Of a DNA stretch of 12,892 nt, positions 1 to 12,892 are shown in pieces. This DNA comes from a virus. Its lineage: Duplodnaviria > Heunggongvirae > Uroviricota > Caudoviricetes. The stretch spans positions 64,001 to 76,892 of IMG/VR virus record IMGVR_UViG_3300024343_000007; one strand, given 5' to 3'. The position numbers and the translations under genes are program-made. The number at the start of each line of letters is the position of its first letter. Positions within the stretch are counted from its first letter, which is position 1. The notes below the pieces were generated by a model. That model ran no database searches. It worked only from the letters and a program-made list of their open reading frames with translations, and was not told the origin of the DNA.

Positions 1-3000
1 AAGAAGTATGGTGGAAATATAGTAAAGCTTAAGACCACATCATCAGGAATGAATTCAAAGGTAACTATTGATGTTCACCCTATTGCTGAAAAAGAATTTA
101 ATAAACTAAACCCACAGCAAGTATTGTTCTCTAAGAAAGGACAATTAGAAAGCTCTAAAGCTTCTCCTAAAACATTAGTAGTCATTAAAGACTTCTTAAA
201 TAGAATAGGAGTAGACATGCAGACTGTAGATAAGATTGTTGTAGATGGTGTGAGACAAGATGCTAATGGTGCTGCGTTGATAATGCAAAAGCTATTACAA
301 GTTGTAGAAGGTAAAGATGACATTGCCCTTCCTGAGGAAGCTATGCACTTTGCTGTAGAGATCTTAGAACAAAAAGATCCTGCATTGTTTAATCAATTAT
401 TAAAAGAGATTGGTAGCTATAGAATGTTACAACAAGTAATAGATCAATATAGCTCTGATCCAAATTATCAAACTGCTGATGGTAAACCTAACATCAGAAA
501 GTTAAAGAAAGAAGCTATTGCTAAAGTATTAGCTGAGGTAGTAATAGGTAAAGCTGAAGGTGTTGTTGAGAAGCCTGAGCTTATGGCTAAAGCAGAAACT
601 TGGTGGCAAAAGATTATTAGCTTCTTTAAGAATTTACTTGTAGAAAGTGGATTTGATACAGCTGCAATAAAGGTTCTTACAGGAGAAGGTATTGGTACAG
701 CTGAAGATATTAGAGCTGAAGAGGGAGAGTTCTTTTTACAGACCCCTGGTAATTCACAAGCTGCTGTATATCAAGGAATTAAAAACTTACAGAATCAAGT
801 TACTACTAAAGATGAAGTACAATCTGATGGAACAATAAAAACTTTCTATTATATTAATGGAAAGAAAGTTCCTAGAAGGGTAAGTGATCTTGTACAAGAT
901 TGGTACACTAGAAGATTTAAAGCTAATGATTTAACTAAAAGTGAATATGCTAAGTCATTAGATGATTTTAGAATGGAGAAAGGTACAAAAGGACATTCTG
1001 ATATTCAATATGCATTCAGCAGATTTGTAGATGAGAATGGATACTTACGTCCTAAAATGTTAGATGATTCTGATTACACGTCTCAACTTGATCCATACAA
1101 CAGAGACTACTATGAAATCCTTAGAGATAACTTGGAGGCAAGATTAAATTCTTTCCCTCCAAATACAAGATTCATGGCTGAGGTTACAATATATGATGAG
1201 AAAAGAGGAATTGCAGGCACAGTGGATTTCTTAGCTATTGAAGAATCAGGTAAGGTAAACATCTTAGATTGGAAGTTTATGGATATTAATCTTGAAAAAT
1301 CTAAAGGAGATATTCCTTGGTACAAGGTTAATTCTTGGAACCTACAAATGGACCAATACAAATCTATTATTAAAACAATGTTCAGTTTAAAGGATAAAGA
1401 CTTTAAACAAACAAGAATGATTCCTATCAGAGCAGTATATGAAGGAGGTAGTGCTAAAGAGAATGTACTTCCTATATTAACTTCAGTGGAGATTGGAGAT
1501 GTTAATATACAGAATATACAAGAAAACTATTTAATTCCTGTAGGTCTTGAAAAAGAAGAAACAGGTAATAAAAAGATTGACAAGTTATTAGAAAAGCTTA
1601 ACGCTGTATACAAACAGATATCTAATATCAAAGCTCTTCCTTCTCAGAAACTATCTAAAGCTGAACAGTTAAACGCATTGTTCTCTGCTATTAGGCAATT
1701 GCAGATGAAGCAGAACATTGTGCCATTGATATATCAAGCTAAGGTATTGAACAAACAGATTCAAACTAATATTGATACATATAATAATAAATGGAAAGGT
1801 ACAGATCCTAAGTCTTTCTCTATGGAAGAAATAGATGAATTCACTGATTCAATTATAGGAGCACAAGAAGCTATTCAAACTTATGCTACATTAGATACAG
1901 ATCTTAAATTCTTATTCCAAGGAGAGTTATCTGAAGAAGATAAGAAATTAAGAGAAGACTTAAGAGATGCTGCTGATAATGCTAGGGATCTAAATACAGA
2001 ACTATTAGAAGTAATGGATGAGTTTGCTGATAAAATTGTTGCTAATAGACAAGGTATATCTGATATACTTAAACCTGAGAAGATTGTTAGAGGGTTTGCC
2101 AAGTGGTTTTCTTCTACATCAATAACACAGGTTAAGGCTATACAGGTTTTATATAGAATGGCAAACAAAGCATTTGGTATAGGTGCTCAGCAAACACTTG
2201 ATGAAACTAAAAAATTACAAACTCTTCAAACTGCATATGAAGAGTGGGCTAAGTCTAAAGGACTTATTCCTAAGAACTACTTTGATATCTTGATGAAGAA
2301 AGGAGAGAATAAATTAATTGATCAATATGATCCTCAGTTTTATAAAGAACTTACTAAAAATGTAGGTGAGAAAAACTTTGATTGGATTAAAGACAATATT
2401 GATATTTCTGAATATAATAAGTTCTTAAAAGAAAGACTTGAGAAAGAAACTGAATACATTAATGAAAAGGCTAGAGTAGAAGAAGGAGAGGAAAGAGAAA
2501 AAGCTATTCAGCAAGAGATTGCTAAAGCTGAAAGAATGTATGACACTTCTACAACTGAAGGTCTTGGGTGGTTACAATATGATCTTATTAAGAAGTTTCC
2601 TAAAGAGAAATGGGAATCTGCTGAATGGAAAGAACTTAAGAACGTTAAACCAGCTAAAGATTTCTATGATTACATTATAGAAAGAAATAACTACTACCAA
2701 TCTATAGGATATATCCATGCAAAAGAAGCAAGGGTATTCCTTCCTTGGGTTAGAAAAGGAATGATGGAGAAGTTAATCTTTGGTGGTAAGATAGCTATAG
2801 GTGAACAGTTCTTAAGAAACATATCTGTAGATGAAGGTGATTTAGGATATGGTGAGACTGATCCTCTAACAGGTAGACCAGTGAACAGAGTTCCAATCTA
2901 TTTAACTAGAGAACTAGAAACAGATTATAGTACAGACTTGTTTAGAAACATGGCTCTTTATAATGAGATGGCTATTAAGTTTAAACAAATGTCTGATATA

Positions 3001-4746
3001 GAAGCACAAGCTAGATTACTTATTAGTGTAGAAAGAAACAAGAAAGCTATTGCTACATCTAGATATGGCAAGACTATAACAAATGAAAAAGGTGAGTTAG
3101 AATATACACCAGATAACACTGAGAACACTCAGCTATTAGAAGATATGGTGAAGGGTATTGTGTATGGACAGAAGTATATAGAAAGCGAAACCTTTGATCA
3201 GTTATTAGGTAAGATGGGTAACTTTGGTGAATCACTTAATAATGGTCTTGCCAAGTTAGGTGTTAATAGTAGAATATTTCCAGAGAACATAGCTAGTAGA
3301 CAGTTTAGCGTAAACAAGGTACTTAATCAAATTAATAATACATATCAAATCAATGCATTAGGATTCAACGTTCTATCAGCTCTTTCTAACTTGTTTGGTG
3401 GTACAGCTCAGTCTATTATCAACGCTGGTACATACTTTACACATGAAGAGTTTGCAGCCACTGAGTATTGGATGATGTTAGGTAAGATGACTGGTAATGA
3501 TAAGGATAAAAGAATTGCAGCATTAGAATACTTCCTTCCTTTAACAGATAATTATAATAAAGAAATTGCTAAGACATTATCTATTAGTAAGTTAAGTCAG
3601 GAGAACATCCAAGAGTTTTTAATGATCTTGATGAGAAAGTCAGACTTGTATGTACAGTCAGCTAACTTCTTTAGCTTCTTAAGTAATACTATTATAGTAG
3701 ATGGTGAGGTGGTAAATGCTAGAGAGTATTTAAGAAAGCAACCAGACTATCAAAAGAAATATCAAGGAACAGCTGAAGAACAAAAAGCTTTCAAACAGAA
3801 GTTTGAAGATGATGTTAAAAAGCTAATTGAAGATAAAGGAATCATGAAGGTTGCTACTATTAAAGATGGTAAATTAGAAATCCCTGGTGTAGAAAGATCT
3901 TCTGATAGCGTATTAGAATTAAGAAGAAAAGTGCAGTCTTTAAGTAAAGCTGCATTAGGTAACTTATCTGAAGATGATATTAGAAAGATTAACCTAAATA
4001 TATATGGTAAGTCTTTCATGTTATTTAAGAACTGGATTCCTAGACTTGTAGATGTAAGATATGGTAACTTAAAATTCAACGCTGGATCTGATGCCTATGA
4101 GTGGGGAAGAATGAGAAATGTATTTAGAATTATGTCTGAAGATATAAGAGGTTCATTATCAAATCTATACAACACACTACAAGGTAATGAGAAAGGTGTA
4201 GACTTTATGAGAAAGCTTTTTGAAAAGAAAAAGGCTGACTATGAATCAGATACAGGTAAGGAACTAGAAATGGATGAAGTGGCATTCATGGATTTAAATG
4301 TAAAGAATGTTAAGGCTCAGTTACTTGATACCATCTTCTTATTAACATTAGTTTCTTTATATGCTGGAGTTAAAGCATACGCTCCAGATGATGATGAGCT
4401 TAGCAAAAACCAACACAGATTCTTTGTCAAAGCAACAGATAAACTTAAGGATGAGCTTTTATATTTCTACAATCCTACAAGCATACTTAATCTAGTTTCA
4501 CAAGGTTTCTTCCCAGCAAAAGGTCTTATTGAAAACTATGTAAAGTTCTTTAACAATTTCATGTTAGAAAACTACTACATAGTTACAGGAGATGAAAAAG
4601 CTGCAGATAAAAACTTTGTACTTAAATATGGTATGAAAGCTGTTCCTGGTTTGAATCAGTTTGCATCTTGGTTACCAATGTTCTATCCTCAAGCAGCCAA
4701 AGACCTAGGAATTAGGGCCCAAGCACAATATGGATTTGTTAGATAG
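1..4746 (+). CDS. Giant phage virion / DNA-ejection-type polyvalent protein (at least 1565 aa, probably 5'-truncated) with N-terminal zincin-like motif, RecB-family PD-(D/E)xK nuclease domain and long alpha-helical C-terminal region
   Basis: Frame 1 has no stop from base 1 (KKYGGNIVKLKTTSSG) to the first Met at 49, so the true start may lie upstream; stop TAG at 4744-4746. No Cys in 1565 aa. K/E-rich helical composition. C-terminal segments (LGFNVLSALSNLFGG, FMLFKNWIPRLVDVRYG...EWGR, hydrophobic TIFLLTLVSLYAGV) recall giant internal virion proteins of podoviruses and crAss-like phages (recognised from memory, not searched). Directly upstream of a fibre operon. Confidence 0.7.
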   Translation, partial: KKYGGNIVKLKTTSSGMNSKVTIDVHPIAEKEFNKLNPQQVLFSKKGQLESSKASPKTLVVIKDFLNRIGVDMQTVDKIVVDGVRQDANGAALIMQKLLQVVEGKDDIALPEEAMHFAVEILEQKDPALFNQLLKEIGSYRMLQQVIDQYSSDPNYQTADGKPNIRKLKKEAIAKVLAEVVIGKAEGVVEKPELMAKAETWWQKIISFFKNLLVESGFDTAAIKVLTGEGIGTAEDIRAEEGEFFLQTPGNSQAAVYQGIKNLQNQVTTKDEVQSDGTIKTFYYINGKKVPRRVSDLVQDWYTRRFKANDLTKSEYAKSLDDFRMEKGTKGHSDIQYAFSRFVDENGYLRPKMLDDSDYTSQLDPYNRDYYEILRDNLEARLNSFPPNTRFMAEVTIYDEKRGIAGTVDFLAIEESGKVNILDWKFMDINLEKSKGDIPWYKVNSWNLQMDQYKSIIKTMFSLKDKDFKQTRMIPIRAVYEGGSAKENVLPILTSVEIGDVNIQNIQENYLIPVGLEKEETGNKKIDKLLEKLNAVYKQISNIKALPSQKLSKAEQLNALFSAIRQLQMKQNIVPLIYQAKVLNKQIQTNIDTYNNKWKGTDPKSFSMEEIDEFTDSIIGAQEAIQTYATLDTDLKFLFQGELSEEDKKLREDLRDAADNARDLNTELLEVMDEFADKIVANRQGISDILKPEKIVRGFAKWFSSTSITQVKAIQVLYRMANKAFGIGAQQTLDETKKLQTLQTAYEEWAKSKGLIPKNYFDILMKKGENKLIDQYDPQFYKELTKNVGEKNFDWIKDNIDISEYNKFLKERLEKETEYINEKARVEEGEEREKAIQQEIAKAERMYDTSTTEGLGWLQYDLIKKFPKEKWESAEWKELKNVKPAKDFYDYIIERNNYYQSIGYIHAKEARVFLPWVRKGMMEKLIFGGKIAIGEQFLRNISVDEGDLGYGETDPLTGRPVNRVPIYLTRELETDYSTDLFRNMALYNEMAIKFKQMSDIEAQARLLISVERNKKAIATSRYGKTITNEKGELEYTPDNTENTQLLEDMVKGIVYGQKYIESETFDQLLGKMGNFGESLNNGLAKLGVNSRIFPENIASRQFSVNKVLNQINNTYQINALGFNVLSALSNLFGGTAQSIINAGTYFTHEEFAATEYWMMLGKMTGNDKDKRIAALEYFLPLTDNYNKEIAKTLSISKLSQENIQEFLMILMRKSDLYVQSANFFSFLSNTIIVDGEVVNAREYLRKQPDYQKKYQGTAEEQKAFKQKFEDDVKKLIEDKGIMKVATIKDGKLEIPGVERSSDSVLELRRKVQSLSKAALGNLSEDDIRKINLNIYGKSFMLFKNWIPRLVDVRYGNLKFNAGSDAYEWGRMRNVFRIMSEDIRGSLSNLYNTLQGNEKGVDFMRKLFEKKKADYESDTGKELEMDEVAFMDLNVKNVKAQLLDTIFLLTLVSLYAGVKAYAPDDDELSKNQHRFFVKATDKLKDELLYFYNPTSILNLVSQGFFPAKGLIENYVKFFNNFMLENYYIVTGDEKAADKNFVLKYGMKAVPGLNQFASWLPMFYPQAAKDLGIRAQAQYGFVR
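280..636 (+). other. Zincin-like metallopeptidase (MPTase-type) domain with variant EExxH motif
   Basis: LPEEAMHF (E96-E97-x-x-H100, nt 334-348), downstream KEAIAKVLA (E155, candidate third ligand, nt 511) and WWQKIISFFKNL helix (nt 601-636). This motif order matches MPTase domains of phage polyvalent proteins, but the first His of HExxH is Glu. Boundaries approximate. Confidence 0.5.
847..1368 (+). other. RecB-family / PDDEXK_1-like nuclease domain inside the giant protein
   Basis: Ordered motifs YYING...RVSD, KGTKGH (H316), E378, GIAGTVD (D393, nt 1225), ILDWK (D407-x-K409, nt 1267-1275) and QMDQY (QxxxY). All expected catalytic positions are present. Confidence 0.8.
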
Positions 4747-4747
4747 T

Positions 4748-4775
4748 TATTGCTATATTATGTAGTAATACTTTT
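4748..4775 (+). terminator. Weak AT-rich hairpin right after the giant gene stop; possible intrinsic terminator or protein-binding inverted repeat
   Basis: tattgcta (4748-4755) pairs with tagtaata (4763-4770) with one G-U pair, followed by ctttt. Low stability. Confidence 0.3.
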
Positions 4776-4784
4776 CCTAACTCA

Positions 4785-4813
4785 TTGAAAATAAATTAAA
4801 TTCACTATTTTTG
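4785..4813 (+). promoter_or_regulatory. Bacteroidota primary-sigma promoter (-33 TTG, -7 TAnnTTTG) for the fibre operon
   Basis: TTG at 4785-4787, 18-nt spacer, TAttTTTG at 4806-4813: an exact match to the Bacteroidota -7 consensus, in the only sizeable intergenic gap of the window. Confidence 0.65.
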
Positions 4814-4820
4814 CTAATAC

Positions 4821-4851
4821 AGGTGCATATGCTATGGCTAGTTATGCACCT
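4821..4851 (+). promoter_or_regulatory. Stem-loop at the predicted transcript 5' end (5' stabiliser or attenuator), or terminator of the upstream gene
   Basis: aggtgcata (4821-4829) is the exact reverse complement of tatgcacct (4843-4851). The stem extends by gcta/tagt around a tggc loop and is followed by tcttgt. Confidence 0.55.
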
Positions 4852-4911
4852 TCTTGTATATCATACACATATGTATAGCAAAAAATTGTTATAACATTAC
4901 AATCTAAAAAC

Positions 4912-7497
4912 ATGAACGTCACCTGTCAAGCAATCCCTTGCCCAGTAATACTGGATTCGACCTGCGTATTCTACGAAGGCCCATACCTTGTATACTCTGG
5001 TATTAATACTAACGACAATTTACAAACAGCATTAGAGAAGATTGATGCAGCTTTTGCATCAGCTGGCTATGGTACGTCTGGTACCTCTGGTTCCTCTGGA
5101 AAGAATGGCACATCTGGAACAGCAGGTTCTAGTGGTAAGTCAGGCACTTCAGGAACTGCTGGTACTTCTGCTAGCTCTGGTAATTCAGGTACAGCTGGTA
5201 CATCAGGAAGCTCTGGTAGCTCTGGAAAGAATGGTACTGCTGGAACATCAGGTTCATCAGGCAGTTCTGGCTCTAGTGGAAATAATGGTACATCAGGAAC
5301 CTCTGCTACATCTGGTAGCTCAGGCTCTAGTGGTACGTCTGGATCTTCTGCATCTAGTGGAACATCTGCTAGCTCAGGAACAGCAGGTTCTTCTGGTATT
5401 TCAGGTGACAGATATGCAACTATATCTAGTAGCACATTTACATTAGGTGCTGCAGGTTCTATTGTTATTGGATTAGGCTTAGCTTATACAGCAGCACAGA
5501 ACGTAATCATAGCATATAACTCAAGCAATCACCAAACTTCTGAGATAATTTCTTATAATCCTACTACAGGAGTGTTGACTTTTGATACTCCTACAGACGT
5601 TGCTGGTTCTGGCACATACTCAGTATGGTCAGTTAACTTAGCTGGAGCAGCAGGTGGTGATGGTTCTAGTGGTACAAGTGGAAGCTCTGGTACATCTGGA
5701 TCTACAGGAACCTCAGGATCTTCTGGATCAAGTGCAACTAGTGGATCAAGTGGAACAAATGGCTCTAGTGGTACCAATGGTTCTAGTGGTATTACAGGTA
5801 CTTCTGGTACTTCAGGAGGTACAGGATCAACAGGATCAGGTGGTACGTCTGGTACTAATGGTACATCAGCAACAGCTGGTACTTCTGGTGTTCCTGGAAC
5901 ATCTGGTACTTCAGGCACATCTGGTGCAGATGGTAGCTCTGGTACAGCCATTGCTAACTGGTATGGTCAGTGGTATTCTTCAGTATCTCAACAAGTTAGT
6001 GCTGCGAATACACCAACAGCTTGGTATTATACAAATACAGAATTATCATATGGTATTACAAATGTCTTGGGATCAAGATTGGTAGTAGCATATCCTGGAC
6101 AATATGAGTTTGCATTCACAGCAATTGTTGATAAACAAACTCCTGGTAGTGCTACATTAAATGTATGGTTAAGACTTAATGGTTCTGATTTAGCTAATAG
6201 TAAAGTTTCTATTGAACTTGTTGGTCAAGAAGTAGAACAATTACCACATACAGCACAAATTATAAACTTACTACCAGGTGATTATATTGAGTGGTATTTT
6301 GCTTGTGACGATAGCACTGCTAGGATCAAAGCAATTCCTCAATTAATCAGTCCATATTTATCTCCTGCTGCTCCAGCAGTAACTGCATACGCTAAACAAA
6401 TTGGTGTGGCAGTAAGTGGAACGTCTGGTACGTCTGCTTCTTCTGGAACATCTGGAACATCTGCTACAGATGGATCAAGTGGTACATCTGCATCATCTGG
6501 AACTTCTGGTTCGTCAGGTTCAACAGGTACCTCTGGTTCTTCTGGTACAAGTGGCACTACAGGAACAAGTGGTACAACAGGTACGTCAGGTACAACTGGA
6601 ACTGATGGCTCAAGTGGTACTAGTGGTACAACTGGAACAGATGGTTCTAGTGGTACTTCTGCATCAAGTGGTACTTCAGCTTCTAGTGGAACCTCAGGTT
6701 CATCTGGAACTGCAGGAACAAGTGGTACAGATGGTTCGTCTGGAACTTCTGGCACTGATGGTAGTTCAGGAACTGATGGTAGTTCAGGTACAAGTGGCAC
6801 TGATGGATCAAGTGGAACTTCAGGTTCTAGTGGTACAGCTGGAACAGCTGGTACTGATGGTTCATCAGGAACATCTGCATCTAGTGGAACCTCAGGTACA
6901 ACAGGTACAGATGGTTCTTCAGGAACAGATGGCTCTTCTGGTACCTCTGGTACAGATGGCTCTAGTGGAACAAGTGGAACAACAGGTACAGATGGATCAA
7001 GTGGTACAAGTGGAACAAGTGGAACTGATGGAAGTTCAGGCACTAGTGGAACTTCAGGTACTAATGGTTCAAGTGGAACTGCTGGTACAACTGGAACTGA
7101 TGGATCTAGTGGAACAGCAGGTACTGCTGGTACAACAGGTACAACAGGAACTTCTGGTACATCAACAAGTACATTAGGTACATCTGGAGATTCAATCACT
7201 ATTCCTCCTGCTGAAGCTACAACAACAACAAGTACAACATCTACAACATCTACTACAACAACAGCAGCACCTGTATACTACTATAATGTAGATCAATATA
7301 ACTGTCCAGGATGTACACTATTTGCACCATCAATACTTGCAGTTTCTACAGTATTATTAACTAATGGAGATTATTACAATATAGGTGATGGTTATGTTTA
7401 CCAAGTTAACTTTGGAGCTCCAGCTGGAACACCTATTGTTGATCTTAGTACAGCTGCATCAGCTGGAACAGATTGTTCTGCAACTTGTGCAATATAA
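4912..7497 (+). CDS. Multidomain Gly-X-Y (G-T/S-S/T) fibre protein, 861 aa
   Basis: Architecture: Cys-containing N-terminal domain (CVFYEG..L..SGI.T.DNLQTALEKID); G-X-Y block 5071-5406; repeated beta module 5407-5640; G-X-Y 5644-5949; C1q/BclA-C-like beta domain 5956-6402; 83-triplet G-X-Y block 6418-7164; Thr-rich linker; Cys-containing C-terminal domain. A-rich start context without SD. Confidence 0.8.
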   Translation: MNVTCQAIPCPVILDSTCVFYEGPYLVYSGINTNDNLQTALEKIDAAFASAGYGTSGTSGSSGKNGTSGTAGSSGKSGTSGTAGTSASSGNSGTAGTSGSSGSSGKNGTAGTSGSSGSSGSSGNNGTSGTSATSGSSGSSGTSGSSASSGTSASSGTAGSSGISGDRYATISSSTFTLGAAGSIVIGLGLAYTAAQNVIIAYNSSNHQTSEIISYNPTTGVLTFDTPTDVAGSGTYSVWSVNLAGAAGGDGSSGTSGSSGTSGSTGTSGSSGSSATSGSSGTNGSSGTNGSSGITGTSGTSGGTGSTGSGGTSGTNGTSATAGTSGVPGTSGTSGTSGADGSSGTAIANWYGQWYSSVSQQVSAANTPTAWYYTNTELSYGITNVLGSRLVVAYPGQYEFAFTAIVDKQTPGSATLNVWLRLNGSDLANSKVSIELVGQEVEQLPHTAQIINLLPGDYIEWYFACDDSTARIKAIPQLISPYLSPAAPAVTAYAKQIGVAVSGTSGTSASSGTSGTSATDGSSGTSASSGTSGSSGSTGTSGSSGTSGTTGTSGTTGTSGTTGTDGSSGTSGTTGTDGSSGTSASSGTSASSGTSGSSGTAGTSGTDGSSGTSGTDGSSGTDGSSGTSGTDGSSGTSGSSGTAGTAGTDGSSGTSASSGTSGTTGTDGSSGTDGSSGTSGTDGSSGTSGTTGTDGSSGTSGTSGTDGSSGTSGTSGTNGSSGTAGTTGTDGSSGTAGTAGTTGTTGTSGTSTSTLGTSGDSITIPPAEATTTTSTTSTTSTTTTAAPVYYYNVDQYNCPGCTLFAPSILAVSTVLLTNGDYYNIGDGYVYQVNFGAPAGTPIVDLSTAASAGTDCSATCAI
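5956..6402 (+). other. Probable C1q/TNF/BclA C-terminal-like jelly-roll trimerisation domain, internal to the fibre
   Basis: YGQWYS...ANTPTAW.Y......GI....SRLVVAYPGQYEFAFTA...VWLRLNG...GDYIEW pattern: alternating beta strands with the G-x-Y-x-F-x-F and GDYIE-type motifs typical of C1q/BclA-like heads, flanked by G-X-Y repeats. Confidence 0.55.
6418..7164 (+). repeat. 83 in-register triplets ([15 protein letters not shown], occasional Ala for Gly), no Pro, Lys or Arg
   Basis: Counted from the translation; contains 13 GTD-GSS hexapeptides. Confidence 0.95.
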
Positions 7498-7520
7498 ATA
7501 AAAATATAAAATAAATATAA

Positions 7521-8864
7521 ATGCCTTACGCTAATATTACAATAACAGTACAACCTAATTTGAACTTTGTTCTTGGTCAGTACATCCAAGTGATCAATGA
7601 TGAGAATAATTTCTTATATGGTCAAGTGGTTACATATGATTCAATTACAGGAATCTTAGTATTTGAACCAACAAACTATGTTGGTAGTGGTACATATACT
7701 AGTTGGACTGTAATTGGTTCAGGTATACCAGGATCAAGTGGAACATCTGGCACTGATGGTTCTAGTGGAACCAATGGATCTAGTGGAACAAATGGTTCCA
7801 GTGGAACAGATGGTAGCTCAGGAACCAATGGTTCTAGTGGAACTGCTGGAACTTCTGGTCTTTCTGGTACAAGTGGATCTTCTGGTACAGCAGGTCTTTC
7901 TGGAGACTTATACAAAACAACATCAGTTAGTAGCTTAACAATAGGAACTGGTACACAAAACTTAACTGTTGGTACAGGGTTAGCGTACACTGTAGGACAG
8001 GTGGTAGTTATTGCTTATGACATAAGTAATAGTATGGGTGGTGATGTGTTATCATATGACGCAGGTACAGGTGCCATGTCAGTTAGCGTTAGTGCTACTG
8101 CTGGTTCTGGTACATACACAGCATGGCAAGTGAACTTAGGTGGTGCTGCTGGAGGTGATGGTACATCAGGTACTTCTGGTTTGCAAGGTTTGGATGGTAA
8201 CTTAGCTACTTGGAGATTATCTAGTTCTACAAACACAGGAACAGATCCAGGCAGTGGTTTCTTTGCTCTAAGCAGTGGCTTAACTTGGGGTACAACTACA
8301 ACAAGCATTGCTATTGACAACATATCTTATGACCCAGCAATTAACTTCTCATCTTACCTTGACTATTTACAACCTAATACAGTTCTTAAGATAGTTAAGA
8401 ATGATGATAAGAATACATATAAAATATTATTAATTACAGCAAGAGATCCATTGGAGCCTGGCTTTGAGCAATTCTCTGTTTCACAGATTGCTTCTGCAGG
8501 TCCTGATCCAGATGTTAATGATGTATTCTATTTTAACGTTATTGGTGTAAGTGGTAGCTCAGGTACTGCAGGTACTTCAGCATCTGCTGGTACAAGTGGA
8601 CAAGATGCTACATCAGGAACAAATGGTTCATCTGGAACTAGTGGTACATCAGGTTCAAGTGGTACATCAGGTACTGATGGAAGCTCTGGTACTAGTGGAA
8701 CATCTGGTACTAATGGAACGTCTGCGTCAAGTGGATCAAGTGGGACATCTGGCACAAGTGCCTCAGCAGGTACAAGTGCTTCTTCTGGAACTGCAGCAAC
8801 ATCAGGTGAAACAACAATATACTCAGGAACAAGTGGTACAACAGAAACATTACCTCCTGCTTAA
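7521..8864 (+). CDS. Gly-X-Y fibre / adaptor protein, 447 aa, with two copies of the repeated beta module and one unrelated beta domain
   Basis: N-terminal module 7521-7715; G-X-Y 7722-7904; internal module 7905-8138; ~114 aa domain 8199-8540; G-X-Y 8544-8813; ends ...GTSGTTETLPPA. No S74 chaperone. Preceded by a 23-nt A/T-only spacer. Confidence 0.8.
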   Translation: MPYANITITVQPNLNFVLGQYIQVINDENNFLYGQVVTYDSITGILVFEPTNYVGSGTYTSWTVIGSGIPGSSGTSGTDGSSGTNGSSGTNGSSGTDGSSGTNGSSGTAGTSGLSGTSGSSGTAGLSGDLYKTTSVSSLTIGTGTQNLTVGTGLAYTVGQVVVIAYDISNSMGGDVLSYDAGTGAMSVSVSATAGSGTYTAWQVNLGGAAGGDGTSGTSGLQGLDGNLATWRLSSSTNTGTDPGSGFFALSSGLTWGTTTTSIAIDNISYDPAINFSSYLDYLQPNTVLKIVKNDDKNTYKILLITARDPLEPGFEQFSVSQIASAGPDPDVNDVFYFNVIGVSGSSGTAGTSASAGTSGQDATSGTNGSSGTSGTSGSSGTSGTDGSSGTSGTSGTNGTSASSGSSGTSGTSASAGTSASSGTAATSGETTIYSGTSGTTETLPPA

Positions 8865-8873
8865 TAAATATAT

Positions 8874-10193
8874 ATGCCTTACAGTAATATAACATTCAAT
8901 ATCACCACAGGTCGTGCATTCAAAGTGGATGACTTTGTCAAAGTTGCAGCTAATTCAAATAACTACATCACTGGTAGGGTTGTATCTTACAACCCAGCCA
9001 CTGGTGATTTAGTTGTTACTCCATATGAGGCAGTTGGATCAGGTACGTTTAGTAGCTGGACAGCAACCCTCACTGGATACAATGGAAGTGCTGGAACTGC
9101 AGGATCATCTGGTACTACAGGTACAGCTGGAACAAGTGGTTCCTCTGGTACAAATGGTACAACAGGAACTGCTGGAACAACTGGCACAGCTGGAACAGAA
9201 GGCAGTTCAGGATCTACAGGTACAAGTGGCACATCTGCAGAAAGTAATTCTAGTGGATCTTCTGGTACTTCTGCTAGTTCAGGAACAGTTGGTGACTCAG
9301 GATCTACTGGAACATCTGGATCTGCTGGTACAGCAGGTACTTCAGGAACAAGTGGAAGTAGTGCATCAAGTGGAACATCTGGTGCATCAGGTACAAGTGG
9401 TAGTTCAGGAACCTCTGGATCTACTGGTACTGCTGGATCTACTGGTACAACTGGAACCTCTGGATCAAGTGGAGCTACAGGACCTCAAGGACCTATAGGT
9501 CCAACAGGACCTCAAGGAGCAACAGGTGGCAAAGGTGCTTCTGGATCTTCTGGAGCTACTGGTCCTCAAGGTCCAACAGGTCCTGCTGGTGGACAAGGTC
9601 CACCAGGTGCTGCAGGTGCTCCAGGTCCACAAGGACCTCAAGGACCTACTGGAGGGCAAGGCCCAACTGGAGCTACTGGAGCTCAGGGACCAACAGGTAC
9701 ATCTGCTTCATATAATCAAAATTTGAATATTAACGCAGGCCCAACAATGGTTTTTACAAACTTTGCTGGTGCTGTTGCTCCTACAATAAATTATAGAACA
9801 TATTTTAATAACTATAAGCAATTTGTGCAAGGTGCAAATCAAGGTGCAGGTTGGACAGGCTTTGGTCCAGGTTGGTATACTCCTGCATCATTAGGTGCTG
9901 CTAGTTTTTATATTACATCAACTAGAGATACTAAGACTAACATCCAATCATATGCTCCTTCTGCAGTGGATTTATTAAAACAAGTTGATATAGTATCTTA
10001 TAATTTAGAGATAGAACAATGTGATGAGGATAAGAGAATAGGATTTATTGCTGAAAATACTCCTAAAGAATTATCCACTGATTCAAAAAATCAAATGGAA
10101 ATAAGTTGTACCTTAGCATTTGTTTTAAAAGCTATACAAGAGATTGACGCAAGAATTGTAAACCTACAAAATAAGAAGAACAATGCCAGCTAA
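8874..10193 (+). CDS. Collagen-like fibre protein A with C-terminal peptidase S74 intramolecular chaperone, 439 aa
   Basis: N-terminal module 8874-9071; 70 triplets 9075-9704 (first Pro at triplet 46); YNQNLN at 9711; aromatic tip; S-T-R-D-T-K-T-N-I (Ser 9918, Lys 9933 at +5); IGFIAE; terminal heptad helix LKAIQEIDARIVNL. Confidence 0.85.
   Translation: MPYSNITFNITTGRAFKVDDFVKVAANSNNYITGRVVSYNPATGDLVVTPYEAVGSGTFSSWTATLTGYNGSAGTAGSSGTTGTAGTSGSSGTNGTTGTAGTTGTAGTEGSSGSTGTSGTSAESNSSGSSGTSASSGTVGDSGSTGTSGSAGTAGTSGTSGSSASSGTSGASGTSGSSGTSGSTGTAGSTGTTGTSGSSGATGPQGPIGPTGPQGATGGKGASGSSGATGPQGPTGPAGGQGPPGAAGAPGPQGPQGPTGGQGPTGATGAQGPTGTSASYNQNLNINAGPTMVFTNFAGAVAPTINYRTYFNNYKQFVQGANQGAGWTGFGPGWYTPASLGAASFYITSTRDTKTNIQSYAPSAVDLLKQVDIVSYNLEIEQCDEDKRIGFIAENTPKELSTDSKNQMEISCTLAFVLKAIQEIDARIVNLQNKKNNAS
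9918..10190 (+). other. Peptidase S74 / intramolecular chaperone auto-processing domain
   Basis: S-x4-K dyad, K-x-x-I, GFIAE motif and C-terminal coiled coil. Confidence 0.85.
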
Positions 10194-11466
10194 CATGACC
10201 TTTAATATAAATACTGAGCTAGCTTATCAAGCAGGTGATAATGTACAATTAAGCCATGATGCTGATAACTATGTCATTGGTACTGTTGTGTCATATAATA
10301 AAGGAACAGGTTCAATAACAATTACTCCCACTGCTTGGAAAGGTAGTGGTACATATAGCTCTTGGACAGTTAACTTAACTGGTACACCTGGCTCTTCTGG
10401 AACATCTGCTTCTGGAGGTTCATCAGGTAAAGCTGGTGAAAGTGGAAGCTCAGGTAAAGATGGAGCACCTGGTCAATCAGGAAGTTCTGGTAAAGGAGGT
10501 AAGTCAAATACTTCTGGTCAATCAGGAGATGCTGGTAGTGCAGGAACAACAGGTACGTCAGGTACACGTGGTCAATCTGGATCTAGTGGTAAAGCTGGAG
10601 CTCATGGTAGTTCTGGTAATAGTAGAACATCAGGAGCTGCTGGTGGAAAAGGATCAAATGGTAATTCAGGCTCAGCTGGTAACAGTGGTGGCTCAGGATC
10701 AAATGGTACATCTGGATCTGCTGGTGCAAGTGGTGGATCAGGTAAAGCTGGTGCAAGTGGTCCAAGTGGTGGATCAGGAGTAAATGGACCCACAGGTCCT
10801 ACTGGTGGACAAGGGCCAATTGGTCCCACTGGAGCTCAAGGAGCAGGTGGTACATCTGGTGTTAATGGTGCAACAGGAGCACAAGGAGCACAAGGAGCAC
10901 AAGGACCAAGAGGTCCACAAGGTGGCACTGGTCCTCAAGGGGGCACTGGTCCAGGGGGTGCTCAAGGTCCAGCTGGTGCACAAGGCCCTACAGGCTCTCC
11001 AGGTGGACAAGGCCCTCAGACAATTTACAATCAATCACTTAACCAAGGAGATGCTGTTCAATTTAGTAATACAGTTACTCAGAATGAAGCTTATTCTGGT
11101 GGTGGATGGAGAATTCAAAATCAAGCAGCATGTAGTGCTAATCAAGGAGCATATTGGTATAGTAATGGTAACTGGGTTTCTGCTGGCGTAGTAGGTTCTA
11201 GTAACTACTTTGGTACATCTTCATCAATATATAAGACAGATATTAAACCTTATCAAGCATGTGCAGTTGATTTAATAAACACTGTAGATATAGTTGAATA
11301 TGAACTTGAGAATCCAATGTATAATCATGTAAAGTTAGGATTCATTGCAGATGATACAGCTGAAGAATTTGCAGGTCCAAATCATGATAAAATGGATATC
11401 ACTAACAGTATAGGTGTTGCTTTAAAAGCTTTACAGGAACTAAACAAAAAAATAGATAATTTATAA
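10183..11466 (+). CDS. Collagen-like fibre protein B with C-terminal peptidase S74 intramolecular chaperone, 427 aa
   Basis: Overlaps the previous gene by 11 nt (possible translational coupling). MPANMTF start is homologous to MPYSN(I/M)TF. Module 10183-10377; 71 triplets 10381-11019; YNQSLN at 11026; S-S-S-I-Y-K-T-D-I (Ser 11218, Lys 11233); LGFIAD; LKALQELNKKIDNL. Confidence 0.85.
   Translation: MPANMTFNINTELAYQAGDNVQLSHDADNYVIGTVVSYNKGTGSITITPTAWKGSGTYSSWTVNLTGTPGSSGTSASGGSSGKAGESGSSGKDGAPGQSGSSGKGGKSNTSGQSGDAGSAGTTGTSGTRGQSGSSGKAGAHGSSGNSRTSGAAGGKGSNGNSGSAGNSGGSGSNGTSGSAGASGGSGKAGASGPSGGSGVNGPTGPTGGQGPIGPTGAQGAGGTSGVNGATGAQGAQGAQGPRGPQGGTGPQGGTGPGGAQGPAGAQGPTGSPGGQGPQTIYNQSLNQGDAVQFSNTVTQNEAYSGGGWRIQNQAACSANQGAYWYSNGNWVSAGVVGSSNYFGTSSSIYKTDIKPYQACAVDLINTVDIVEYELENPMYNHVKLGFIADDTAEEFAGPNHDKMDITNSIGVALKALQELNKKIDNL
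10876..10905 (+). repeat. Exact 9-bp tandem repeat (ggagcacaa x3; GAQ triplets)
   Basis: Read directly from the sequence. Confidence 0.9.
11218..11463 (+). other. Peptidase S74 / intramolecular chaperone auto-processing domain
   Basis: S-x4-K dyad, GFIAD motif and terminal coiled coil. Confidence 0.85.
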
Positions 11467-11476
11467 AAATAAAGAT

Positions 11477-11845
11477 ATGGTAGTTAATTATAATTTCATA
11501 CTTGATGATTTGCACGTAGCACCAACGTTAGAAGGTCATTCTCAAGTTGTATTGAAGATTAGTTGGTTTCTAGTTGGTACAGCAGTTGATGCTGCAGGTA
11601 ATATACATGAAGAAAGATACTCTGCTACTACTACTATTAAACCTGATGTTGCTCCTGGTGAGTTCATTGCTTTTGAGCAATTAACTCCTCAAGTACTTCA
11701 ATCGTGGGTTGAGATTAGTGAGAATAGAAAGAAAAGAAACATGGCTTGGATAAAAGCTAACATGATAGATAAAAGACTTGAAGATAAAGTGACTCCTAAA
11801 GTCGTTTTAATTAAACCAACTTGGTTACAAAATAACAATCAGTAA
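11477..11845 (+). CDS. Small phage fibre-associated protein, 122 aa (resembles the family I recall as DUF7936)
   Basis: Pattern Y.F.L..L...P...G...VV..ISW...G ... FI.FEQLT...L..WV ... P..W, seen in small proteins encoded beside S74-containing fibre genes. Family name is from memory and unverified. Confidence 0.55.
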
Positions 11846-11847
11846 TT

Positions 11848-12892
11848 ATGCCATACTCTAATATGACATTTAATGTTAGTACAGGACTTGCGTTCGTTGT
11901 CAATGACTTCGTCCAAGTAAGTTATGATGCTAATAATTATATAATTGGTAGAGTTGTATCTTATGATTCTGGTACTGGTGTATTAGTAATCACTCCATAT
12001 GACTATAAAGGATCTGGATCATATAGTAGTTGGACTGTATCTTTAACAGGATACAATGGAACAGCTGCTACATCAGGTACATCAAGTATCTCAGCAACTG
12101 CTGGTACTGCTGGTACTGCTGGTACTAGTGCTACAGTGGGAACGTCTGGAGAAAGTGATAGTTCTGGTACATCTGGAACAGCTGCAACCTCTGGCACAAG
12201 TGCATCTGCAGGTTCATCTGGAACAGGTGGATCATCAGGAACAGCAGGTGACTCTGCTCAATCTGGTACAACAGGTACGAGTGGTACGAGTGGATCTTCA
12301 GGAACGTCTGCAGAAAGTGGTACGTCTGGATCAAGTGGAACCAATGGTTCTTCTGCTACAACAGGTGCATCAGGTGGAAGTGGTACATCAGGTTCTTCAG
12401 GATCTTCAGCTTCATCAGGAGTTTCTGGAACATCAGGTTCTTCAGGAGTTAATGGTCCCACTGGTTCTACAGGTCCAACAGGAACACAAGGTCCCACTGG
12501 TTCAACAGGATCTAGTGGTGTATCAGGGGTAAATGGACCTACTGGTGCTACAGGTCCACAAGGTCCACAAGGACTTACAGGTTTTCAAGGACCAACTGGA
12601 CCAATAGGTGCAACAGGAGGTCCTGGACCACAAGGACCCACAGGTCCTCAAGGGGCTCAAGGTCCTCAGGGCCCATCAAATAGTAATAACCAATCATTGA
12701 ATGCTAGTAATAATTCAGTTTTTGAAGGAGGTGTAACAACAAGTCAATGGTATACTGCACAAAGATTTTACCAAGGTGGTCATAGAGGAATGATAAGTCC
12801 TTCAACTCCAACCTTTTTTGGAGAAGGATTTGGATGGTATACATTTGCTTCGATAGGATCTACTTATTTCTTCACTGTATCTACAGAAGAAG
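11848..12892 (+). CDS. Collagen-like fibre protein C (3'-truncated by the window; absent from the ORF track)
   Basis: ATG at 11848, two bases after the previous stop, no stop to the window end (348 codons). [44 protein letters not shown]...SWTVSLT module; 70 triplets 12049-12678; NNQSLN at 12685; aromatic tip; ends ...YFFTVSTEE where the S74 Ser is expected (12880). Confidence 0.9.
12097..12126 (+). repeat. Exact 9-bp tandem repeat (actgctggt x3)
   Basis: Read directly from the sequence. Confidence 0.9.

Follow-up and report, generated by a model that had tools for sequence, protein, structure and literature searches.

Why should a stretch of phage DNA lack a single trinucleotide in both orientations? 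The question is raised by the window analysed here, a whole stretch of 12,892 nt (contig positions 64001-76892; 38.5% G+C), from which a sequence-only reading had reported CCG and CGG to be missing while about 58 CG dinucleotides were left. The window comes from an uncultured freshwater crAss-like phage (Crassvirales), as seen from its crAss-type terminase, portal and major capsid protein (profile matches phrog_6681, E = 3e-82; phrog_6547, E = 2e-103; phrog_11589, E = 5e-33) and its giant virion RNA-polymerase-like ORF (4306 aa). The GenBank phage collection gave a distant match to cr108_1 and no near-identical phage record. The whole family is CpG-poor (CG observed/expected ratio, O/E, 0.14-0.5) and devoid of CCGG. 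In the first 50 kb of crAss001, CG O/E is 0.03. No tRNA genes were found in the contig (G000) or in its relatives G001, G003 and G004, and two ARAGORN calls of tmRNA both look spurious.

Loss of CCG and CGG from the window and the contig

Exact counting bears out the initial impression, with 58 CG in the window (O/E 0.12) and none in a CCG or CGG context: by 5' base they divide into ACG 38, TCG 9, GCG 11 and CCG 0, and by 3' base into CGT 39, CGA 9, CGC 10 and CGG 0. A first-order Markov model predicts 6.4 CCG and 15.5 CGG (~22 together), and 1000 synonymous-codon shuffles of the seven window ORFs, which preserve protein sequence and codon usage, give a mean of 74.9 CCG|CGG and a minimum of 51. 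Under-representation is therefore found against nulls keeping composition, dinucleotides, codon usage and protein sequence, and a count at the level predicted by CG depletion and codon usage, the outcome that would have made the absence unremarkable, was not seen. Among the 609 Gly codons of these ORFs, none follows a C-ending codon (55 expected), just as had been noticed by eye. GATC (64), GGCC (8), CCWGG (20), ACGT (23) and TCGA (2) all occur, again as first described, and the window is also without GCGC, CGCG, CCGG and GGATCC.

All seven ORFs lie on the plus strand. The first (1..4746) is the 3' part of a 1653-aa ORF of virion/cargo type, which matches no Pfam family; no codon phase of this part contains CCG or CGG. 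It is followed by an 861-aa, very Gly-rich collagen-repeat fibre gene (4912..7497; PF01391, E = 5e-53), in which no Gly codon is preceded by a C-ending codon, and then by three collagen-repeat fibre genes of 447 aa (7521..8864), 439 aa (8874..10193; with a Peptidase_S74 chaperone domain) and 427 aa (10183..11466), a 122-aa DUF7936 gene (11477..11845) and a further collagen-repeat fibre gene cut off by the end of the contig (11848..12891), each of these last five holding zero CCG/CGG.

The window is part of a genome-wide purge. Normal frequencies elsewhere, the other result that could have made the window a local accident, were not found: the whole 76,892-nt contig has 425 CG (O/E 0.18) but 0 CCG and 2 CGG, against 62 CCG and 87 CGG under the first-order Markov model (149 in total) and 97 CCG and 206 CGG under synonymous shuffling (~302 in total). 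Codon phases 0, 1 and 2 are all at zero but for one site, and neither a particular 5' base nor a particular 3' base spares a CCG. Since CCG (0) and CGG (2) are both all but gone from the plus strand, both orientations have been purged, which differs from the one-orientation loss of a Type III-like site, and the avoidance operates at the DNA level, on both strands and in all codon phases, independently of codon usage.

Distribution and repeated origin of the trait

Complete CCG-free relatives (105-113 kb) contain 0 or 1 CCG/CGG, including G003 (0 in 112.7 kb; ~300 expected from its own CG count) and G010 (0 in 112.9 kb with 1197 CG; 381 expected). In G010, GCGC is seen 35 times against 36 expected and CGCG is also present, so that the avoidance signal there is specific to CCG. 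Pooled over CCG-free rows, 27 sites remain of ~1960 expected. The trait is patchy (38 of 173 distinct relatives): well-supported branches of a TerL tree force at least eight changes of trait, and a tree built from six proteins of 13 genomes rejects one common CCG-free clade (AU p = 2.4e-13). The purge has a repeated origin, having arisen at least six separate times within this one family of phages. A sister clade is without TCGA, CCGA/TCGG and CCGG (together YCGR) and retains ACGG/CCGT (147 seen vs 94 expected). Avoidance thus differs among related phages, and the gains and losses described below indicate that selection maintains it.

CCG-free, YCGR-free and ordinary relatives share metagenomes (3300042448, with L005, L033 and L045; further shared metagenomes are 3300021354, with L017 and L060, and 3300032286, with L258, L261 and L070). 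This co-occurrence, the presence of the trait in 38 distinct assemblies and ORFs that are intact up to 4306 aa make an artefact of assembly, base-calling or databases hardly conceivable, and nothing speaking for one came to light.

The relative G001, whose core proteins are 96-98% identical to those of G000, carries 34 CCG/CGG sites, nearly all in imported segments and 20 of the 34 in a new fibre C-terminus, a natural relaxation of the purge through recombination. As G011 has four sites as well, some lineages are under a pressure that is less than absolute. What is left in G001 and L077 is mainly CGG, but these sites fall within Gly-rich plus-strand genes.

Selection on one word or on several

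The earlier reading had counted methylation-driven C-to-T decay and a deaminase among the possible causes. In such decay a context-specific cytosine deaminase, or deamination of 5mC at methylated CCG, would erode sites without selection. Such decay would be in line with the mild over-representation of TG and CA in the contig (O/E 1.22 and 1.20) and with TGG being the commonest counterpart of CGG in CCG-free genomes. However, for most C-ending codons that precede Gly only TGG is synonymous, ~40% of CCG counterparts are transversions such as CAG, CCT and ACG, and CC overall is near expectation (O/E 0.90). Nor was the raised C>T at CpG of vertebrate-type methylation and deamination observed, with rates per 1000 site-branches of 17.3 at CpG vs 18.05 at other C, and 43.8 vs 42.8 in the sister pair. 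Outgroup-polarised CG losses run at the neutral rate (22 observed vs 19.3 expected), whereas CG gains are suppressed (64 vs 162); gains of CCG|CGG number 8 against 63 expected in the G000/G001 pair, and 76 against 149 and 109 against 213 in CCG-containing pairs. Neutral losses combined with suppressed gains of CG and CCG fit selection and not deamination decay, and the exact zeros in 113 kb and the both-strand symmetry also misfit decay, which we consider a most improbable cause.

The proposal that a 3-nt word is avoided, and not CCGG alone, is upheld by the distribution of its four-letter extensions. CCG-free genomes lose every CCGN/NCGG class together, while the rest of the family has lost CCGG and keeps ACGG/CCGT at ~0.9 of expectation (median 0.88). 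ACGG/CCGT falls to 0.1 or below only where one or both of the remaining CCGN classes are depleted as well; all three classes are lost in 32 of 36 rows, and ACGG/CCGT alone in none. A single agent would suit these sequence patterns better than several agents. Several ordinary restriction-modification (R-M) systems, each with a site of at least 4 bp (CCGG, CCGC/GCGG and further ones for CCGA and CCGT), might jointly remove CCG, corresponding to the overlapping host sites suggested at first, and classical sites are plainly avoided: CCGG is missing throughout the family, these phages have next to no GCGC, CGCG or GGATCC (G010 excepted for the first two), GGCC is absent from G003 and TCGA from the sister clade, and the remaining family members already show a 2-3-fold deficit of CCGA/TCGG and CCGC/GCGG. 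HpaII-type (CCGG) and AciI-type (CCGC) enzymes exist, but at least two more non-palindromic 4-bp specificities (CCGA, CCGT) would be required, and we know of no 4-bp enzymes for either. Because three non-palindromic classes vanish jointly in each of at least six independent lineages, and no flanking base saves a CCG, a combination of ordinary systems seems quite unlikely.

A proposed host reader of CCG and its nearest known counterparts

Of the candidate causes first put forward, the short-specificity nuclease stands as the best reading, and decay and overlapping R-M sites are disfavoured. We attribute the purge, with a probability of roughly 0.58, to recurrent selection by a restriction-type DNA reader of the host with a CCG target. 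In this account, natural selection on synonymous and non-coding positions has stripped CCG/CGG from the phage genome, on top of the family-wide CG depletion and loss of CCGG. The agent would be a restriction-type, DNA-targeting defence of the host, probably a member of Bacteroidota, which recognises a bare 3-bp CCG in duplex DNA in either orientation; very few sites might be enough to kill the phage, such that phages meeting reader-bearing hosts would survive only once every site had been removed. As no enzyme, methyltransferase or host was identified, we infer from the genomes that the agent would be host-encoded, a single reader with a 3-bp target, and active on unmodified DNA. The data point to a recognition word that almost all known restriction enzymes exceed in length; we are not aware of any enzyme that targets CCG in unmodified DNA, and the literature searched yielded no account of a CCG-specific enzyme, of phages purged of a trinucleotide or of crAss-like phages depleted in CpG. 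Two considerations weigh against a CCG reader: a host with a 3-bp target must bear the cost of methylating tens of thousands of sites in its genome, and such a reader alone does not account for the family-wide CG depletion (O/E 0.14-0.5).

Restriction-site avoidance is a textbook effect for 4-8 bp sites, reportedly surveyed by Rusinov et al. in 2018. As in unmodified phages that display it, a short word has disappeared here from both strands through synonymous changes and changes in non-coding DNA, in a lineage-specific manner and without a phage methyltransferase, and CCGG, GCGC, CGCG and GGATCC are lost as well. Unlike in the loss of 4-6-bp Type IIP sites, the word is 3 bp and non-palindromic, and the purge is an exact zero in 113 kb with at least six origins in one family. 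The nearest known enzymes to a CCG reader are Nt.CviPII (CCD) and FspEI (Cm5C).

Nt.CviPII/M.CviPII of chlorella virus NYs-1 reads CCD (PMC3017599). Like the proposed reader, Nt.CviPII is a natural DNA cutter with a 3-nt asymmetric target that includes CCG; however, this nickase is encoded by the virus together with a partner methyltransferase, and its further targets CCA and CCT are abundant in these phages. No CviPII homologue was found in them, nor a methyltransferase in the five near-complete genomes searched. The phage might by analogy encode a frequent cutter of its own that breaks down host DNA at CCG and spares the phage, self-protected by having no sites, and with ~1 CCGN/NCGG per 100 bp of candidate-host DNA the word would separate host from phage well. 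Yet a gene for such a self-protected cutter of the CviPII type was not detected, and no gene follows the trait across 13 genomes, that is, none is in all CCG-free and in no CCG-containing genomes. The nearest to it is a Gly_rich_2 fibre protein in three of four complete CCG-free genomes. Genes specific to the CCG-free clade are only an 81-aa ORF, which was rejected as a trait gene because it is missing from the independent CCG-free G010 and G011, and a GT2-like gene. The 1653-aa protein was also considered as a nuclease and gave no Pfam, PADLOC or PDB sequence match; its homologue is 98% identical in G001, which nevertheless has 34 sites, and only ~30% identical in other relatives, and its allele types therefore do not track the trait. 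We judge a nuclease of the phage itself to be very improbable.

FspEI reads Cm5C and LpnPI reads Cm5CDG (PMC3874153), and E. coli McrA reads N(Y>R)m5CGR (PMC2847215). These enzymes of the MspJI family (FspEI, LpnPI) and McrA read a cytosine and one neighbour, and on CpG-methylated DNA their targets would be CCG and YCGR. A modification-dependent host nuclease (Type IV/IIM) of the MspJI/FspEI or McrA kind could accordingly cut phage DNA that bears the 5-methyl-CpG of a previous host: an FspEI-like Cm5C reader would see exactly C-mC-G and a McrA-like reader Y-mC-G-R, the forbidden set of the sister clade. As such enzymes typically read one flanking base, all forbidden sets would be CG-centred, and the family-wide CG depletion would be accounted for too. 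However, they require 5-methylcytosine, and CpG in these phages is not hypermutable, the lack of C>T excess giving no sign of methylated phage CpG. The phage methyltransferase proposed for scrutiny by the sequence-only reading did not turn up, as five near-complete genomes gave no match to PF00145 or PF01555 and thus no C5 or N4/N6 methyltransferase. In addition, a CpG-methylating host would not carry such a nuclease, so pressure would be confined to the time after a host switch, which would make a total purge surprising. This explanation is therefore unlikely in our view.

Evidence on the host itself is weak, as relatives were binned with Sediminibacterium, Cytophagales and unrelated MAGs. 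In candidate-host MAG DNA, CG O/E is 0.56-0.78, CCGN is normal and ACGT is low; the phage has the opposite profile, and host mimicry was rejected on this ground. No CRISPR-spacer-like match was found in ~800 Bacteroidia genomes (~400 from the order of the Sediminibacterium MAG and ~400 from the class of the Cytophagales MAG), where matches were to collagen-repeat and low-complexity sequence only; a 36-nt match was dismissed as a spacer because it sits in a Ser/Thr-rich coding repeat and not in a CRISPR array. If a host Type I or II system needed CCG/CGG beside the protospacer, a phage lacking this PAM would be untargetable, and PAMs are indeed 2-5 nt long and, over a whole genome, free of orientation; one study reportedly observed phages depleted in PAMs. 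But the reported depletion is weak and falls short of total loss, PAMs are usually recognised promiscuously, and the neighbouring forbidden sets (YCGR, GCGC, CGCG, CCGG) are palindromic, which is typical of dimeric restriction enzymes. PAM removal is accordingly a very unlikely cause.

Under the preferred reading, a host restriction-type reader of CCG, these genomes are the negative imprint of a 3-bp target. The same zero appears independently in several lineages of an abundant family, a sister clade has another CG-centred set, and both types share samples. A wider proposal, plausible but tentative, is that freshwater Bacteroidota carry widespread undescribed DNA-targeting defences reading CG-centred 2-4-bp words (CCG here, YCGR in the sister clade), with specificities that differ between strains of one lake, and that phages recode whole genomes repeatedly and reversibly in response. 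It predicts that some freshwater Bacteroidota methylate every CCG and others every YCGR, destroying DNA that carries the bare word. If confirmed, this would represent a new class of restriction-enzyme specificity with possible use as frequent cutters, and the forbidden-word profile would provide a sequence-only marker linking uncultured phages to host strains. It would also help to explain the CpG poverty of crAss-like phages, including crAss001.

CCG and CGG in the window and in its contig

The window (12,892 nt, 38.5% G+C) contains exactly 58 CG dinucleotides, with an observed/expected ratio (O/E) of 0.12, and none of them lies in a CCG or CGG context, which bears out the sequence-only reading that both words are completely absent. 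The preceding base is A in 38 cases, T in 9, G in 11, and C in 0, and the following base is T in 39, A in 9, C in 10, and G in 0, against a first-order Markov expectation of 6.4 CCG and 15.5 CGG. The seven ORFs (encoding a large virion protein, five collagen-repeat fibre proteins, and a DUF7936 protein) contain 609 Gly codons, none of which follows a C-ending codon (55 expected), and 1000 within-gene synonymous-codon shuffles that preserved protein sequence and codon usage gave a mean of 74.9 and a minimum of 51 CCG|CGG occurrences where none is observed. Counting also confirmed the earlier statement that GATC, GGCC, CCWGG, ACGT, and TCGA are present; GCGC, CGCG, CCGG, and GGATCC are not. Across the window (1-12892), GGG is markedly scarce on the + strand only (38 vs 202 expected) and CCC is at expectation, probably because the collagen-like repeats favour the Gly codons GGT and GGA.

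The window makes up the final 12.9 kb of G000, a single contig of 76,892 nt, which must be a fragment since complete genomes among its more than 500 relatives in IMG/VR measure 105-119 kb. The contig is crAss-like: its terminase, portal, and major capsid protein hit PHROG families of the crAss type, one ORF of 4306 aa resembles the giant virion RNA polymerases, and the first ORF of the window has distant similarity to a protein encoded by the crAss-like phage cr108_1. The whole contig has 425 CG (O/E 0.18) with 0 CCG and 2 CGG, far below the 62 + 87 expected under the Markov-1 null and the 97 + 206 under synonymous shuffling. The words are missing in all three codon phases, and NNC|GGN boundaries number 0 where 174 are expected. 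Because boundary-spanning CG as a whole is depleted only 4.5-fold (164 vs 734 expected), the loss of CCG is absolute and adds to a general CG poverty. The contig also avoids GCGC (0), GGATCC (0 vs 17), GGTACC (10 vs 41), and CATG (179 vs 318). One of the two remaining CGG, at position 12808 of the contig (locus L001, outside the window), lies in a G-tract element of a divergent control region, inside the near-palindrome TGCAC-GGGGG-TGCA; it is retained in the closest relative, G001, and may be functionally constrained.

A three-base word lost repeatedly among relatives

In ordinary, CCG-containing relatives, median O/E is 0 for CCGG, 0.31 for CCGA/TCGG, 0.42 for CCGC/GCGG, and 0.88 for ACGG/CCGT. 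ACGG/CCGT falls to ≤0.1 of expectation in 36 of the sequences compared; at least one other class is also gone in all 36, and all three CCGN classes are lost in 32 of them. Pooled CCG-free sequences hold 27 CCG/CGG sites where about 1960 are expected, TCGA remains nearly normal in them (528 vs 645 expected), and CCG is avoided whichever base precedes or follows it. As the classes vanish jointly and irrespective of flanking base, one reader of a 3-bp word is the simpler account. Four separate 4-bp restriction systems jointly removing every CCG would be a less simple one, given that ACGG/CCGT is never lost alone, and it would need readers of CCGA and of CCGT; we know of no enzyme for either.

CpG is depleted in every relative (O/E 0.14-0.53), and CCGG is missing from nearly all of them and GCGC from most; total loss of CCG/CGG is patchy. 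A first TerL tree placed the CCG-free phages in one clade of 24 sequences around the genome of the window. In a wider TerL sample, 38 of 173 distinct sequences are CCG-free and occupy approximately seven separate places, with well-supported branches forcing at least eight changes of CCG state. A six-protein tree of 13 genomes sets G011 beside the ordinary G018 and groups G010 with the ordinary G015 and G016; placing all CCG-free genomes in one clade is rejected by the AU test (p = 2.4e-13). Both words are entirely absent from G003 (112.7 kb, 939 CG), G010 (112.9 kb, 1197 CG), and G013 (61.9 kb); G002 (105 kb) has 0 CCG and one CGG, G012 (62.9 kb) has one site, and G011 (112.8 kb, complete with terminal repeats) has four. 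G010 retains GCGC (35 vs 36 expected) and CGCG, so the CCG purge is independent both of the GCGC/CGCG purge and of the degree of CG depletion. GGATCC occurs 0-3 times and CGCG 0-2 times per genome in G000-G005, among which G003 alone has 0 GGCC in 112.7 kb. The + strand of L077 (14 kb, sister of the CCG-free L189) has one CCG but 12 CGG, a bias that may stem from codon use in Gly-rich genes or from escape in one orientation.

A sister clade (whole genomes G004 and G005 plus 11 further sequences; loci L019, L023-L033, L026, and L027) lacks a different set of words. In G004, TCGA (0 vs 89 expected), CCGA/TCGG (0 vs 94), and CCGG (0 vs 25), together YCGR, are absent, and ACGG/CCGT (147 vs 94 expected) and CCGC/GCGG are retained; the clade also lacks GCGC. 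An artefact of sample or method is excluded, since metagenomes 3300042448, 3300021354, and 3300032286 yielded CCG-free, YCGR-free, and ordinary relatives alike. Further afield, CG poverty is extreme in the first 50 kb of crAss001 (L158, 1-50000), with only 44 CG (O/E 0.03), and absent from cr108_1 (L159, 1-50000), where CG O/E is 0.54 and shows no bias by context; crAss-like lineages differ in CG purging, which is near total in some. ARAGORN called two tmRNA genes (L107:7160-7543 and L099:14058-14469) in phage genomes without tRNA genes, both probably false positives.

Selection against new sites

Substitutions in close genome pairs were polarised by outgroup. Between G000 and G001, C>T changes run at 17.3 per 1000 site-branches at CpG and 18.05 at other C, and CG losses (22) are near the 19.3 expected from context-free rates. 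Gains are suppressed, for CG (64 vs 162 expected) and above all for CCG|CGG (8 vs 63); in CCG-containing pairs, CCG gains are about 2-fold low (76/149, 109/213), matching their general CG deficit. Since losses are neutral and gains suppressed, existing CG sites are not hypermutable and new CG, especially new CCG, is removed, a pattern of purifying selection based on parsimony and modest counts. These observations do not fit deamination decay. Where the sister clade has CCG/CGG, its CCG-free counterparts show transitions (TGG, CCA, CTG, TCG) as well as transversions (AGG, CAG, CCT, ACG).

Possible readers, hosts, and natural relaxation

Searches of five near-complete phage genomes gave no match to the C5 (PF00145) or N4/N6 (PF01555) DNA methyltransferase families, and no gene tracked the trait when gene content was compared between complete genomes, four of them CCG-free and five CCG-containing; a Gly_rich_2 fibre protein, encoded by three of the CCG-free genomes, came nearest. 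An 81-aa ORF specific to the clade of the window was rejected as a trait gene because it is missing from G010 and G011. Likewise rejected, as a candidate nuclease, was the 1653-aa virion protein of the window: sequence searches against Pfam, PADLOC, and PDB gave no match, and its allele types do not correlate with the trait.

G001 shares 96-98% identity with G000 in core proteins, yet it has 34 CCG/CGG sites, nearly all in segments without a homologue in the clade, one of them closest to the sister clade. The C-terminal two-thirds (G001:C1:85700-90950; L094, L095) of a 2631-aa fibre gene accounts for 20 of the 34, chiefly in the form GCGGT (GGC-GGT, Gly-Gly). Lacking any nucleotide homologue in the other genomes, this part of the gene resembles a recently acquired receptor-binding region. 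A phage that cut CCG itself would be barred from such imports, and the 34 sites thus weigh against a phage-encoded cutter; a change of host, or a host without the reader, would make them possible. Beside the fibre genes, a cassette (L094:14329-19083 and L095:6-11411) encodes glycosyltransferases (GT1, GT2, GT9), an FkbM-type methyltransferase, and a class I SAM methyltransferase, probably modifiers of protein or sugar rather than DNA methyltransferases.

The MAGs to which relatives were assigned carry names such as Sediminibacterium (twice), Cytophagales, and Aquiluna, indicating a freshwater habitat and hinting weakly at a host among the Bacteroidota. In MAGs containing related phage contigs, CG O/E is 0.56-0.78, CCGN and GCGC are normal or high, and ACGT is low, the reverse of the phage, in which ACGT is the commonest CG context (135 vs 44 expected); drift towards host composition is therefore rejected. 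In the Sediminibacterium MAGs G006 and G007 (L140-L151), ACGT is 2-4-fold under-represented (e.g., 13 vs 42 per 20 kb). The Cytophagales MAG G008 (L122, L124, L130, L133-L139, L152-L154, L350) includes several contigs from the phage family and encodes eight C5-methyltransferases, and CCGG, GCGC, and TCGA are scarce in its own DNA. It shows that restriction-modification-rich hosts of the expected kind exist, which is not evidence that G008 is the host.

The most likely mechanism would be a host restriction-type defence reading CCG in duplex DNA in either orientation; a reader of unmodified DNA would be paired with a cognate CCG methyltransferase of the host. With 0-4 sites left per genome, tolerance for them seems to be very low. 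Type III-type systems leave a strand bias, whereas both orientations are purged here. An attractive alternative is a reader of methylated CpG, as both forbidden sets agree with published specificities: FspEI recognises Cm5C (PMC3874153), and E. coli McrA prefers N(Y>R)m5CGR on methylated DNA (PMC2847215), the YCGR of the sister clade. Mild evidence against it is that no methyltransferase was found in the phages and that CpG is not hypermutable. For the host defence against CCG, the CCD target of Nt.CviPII (PMC3017599) is a precedent for a natural 3-nt target.

Avoidance of a restriction target as such is well known. As far as we know, and within the literature searched, the variant described here is new in combining a non-palindromic 3-bp word at exact zero in 113 kb, convergence inside one family, a sister clade purging YCGR, and natural relaxation through recombination.
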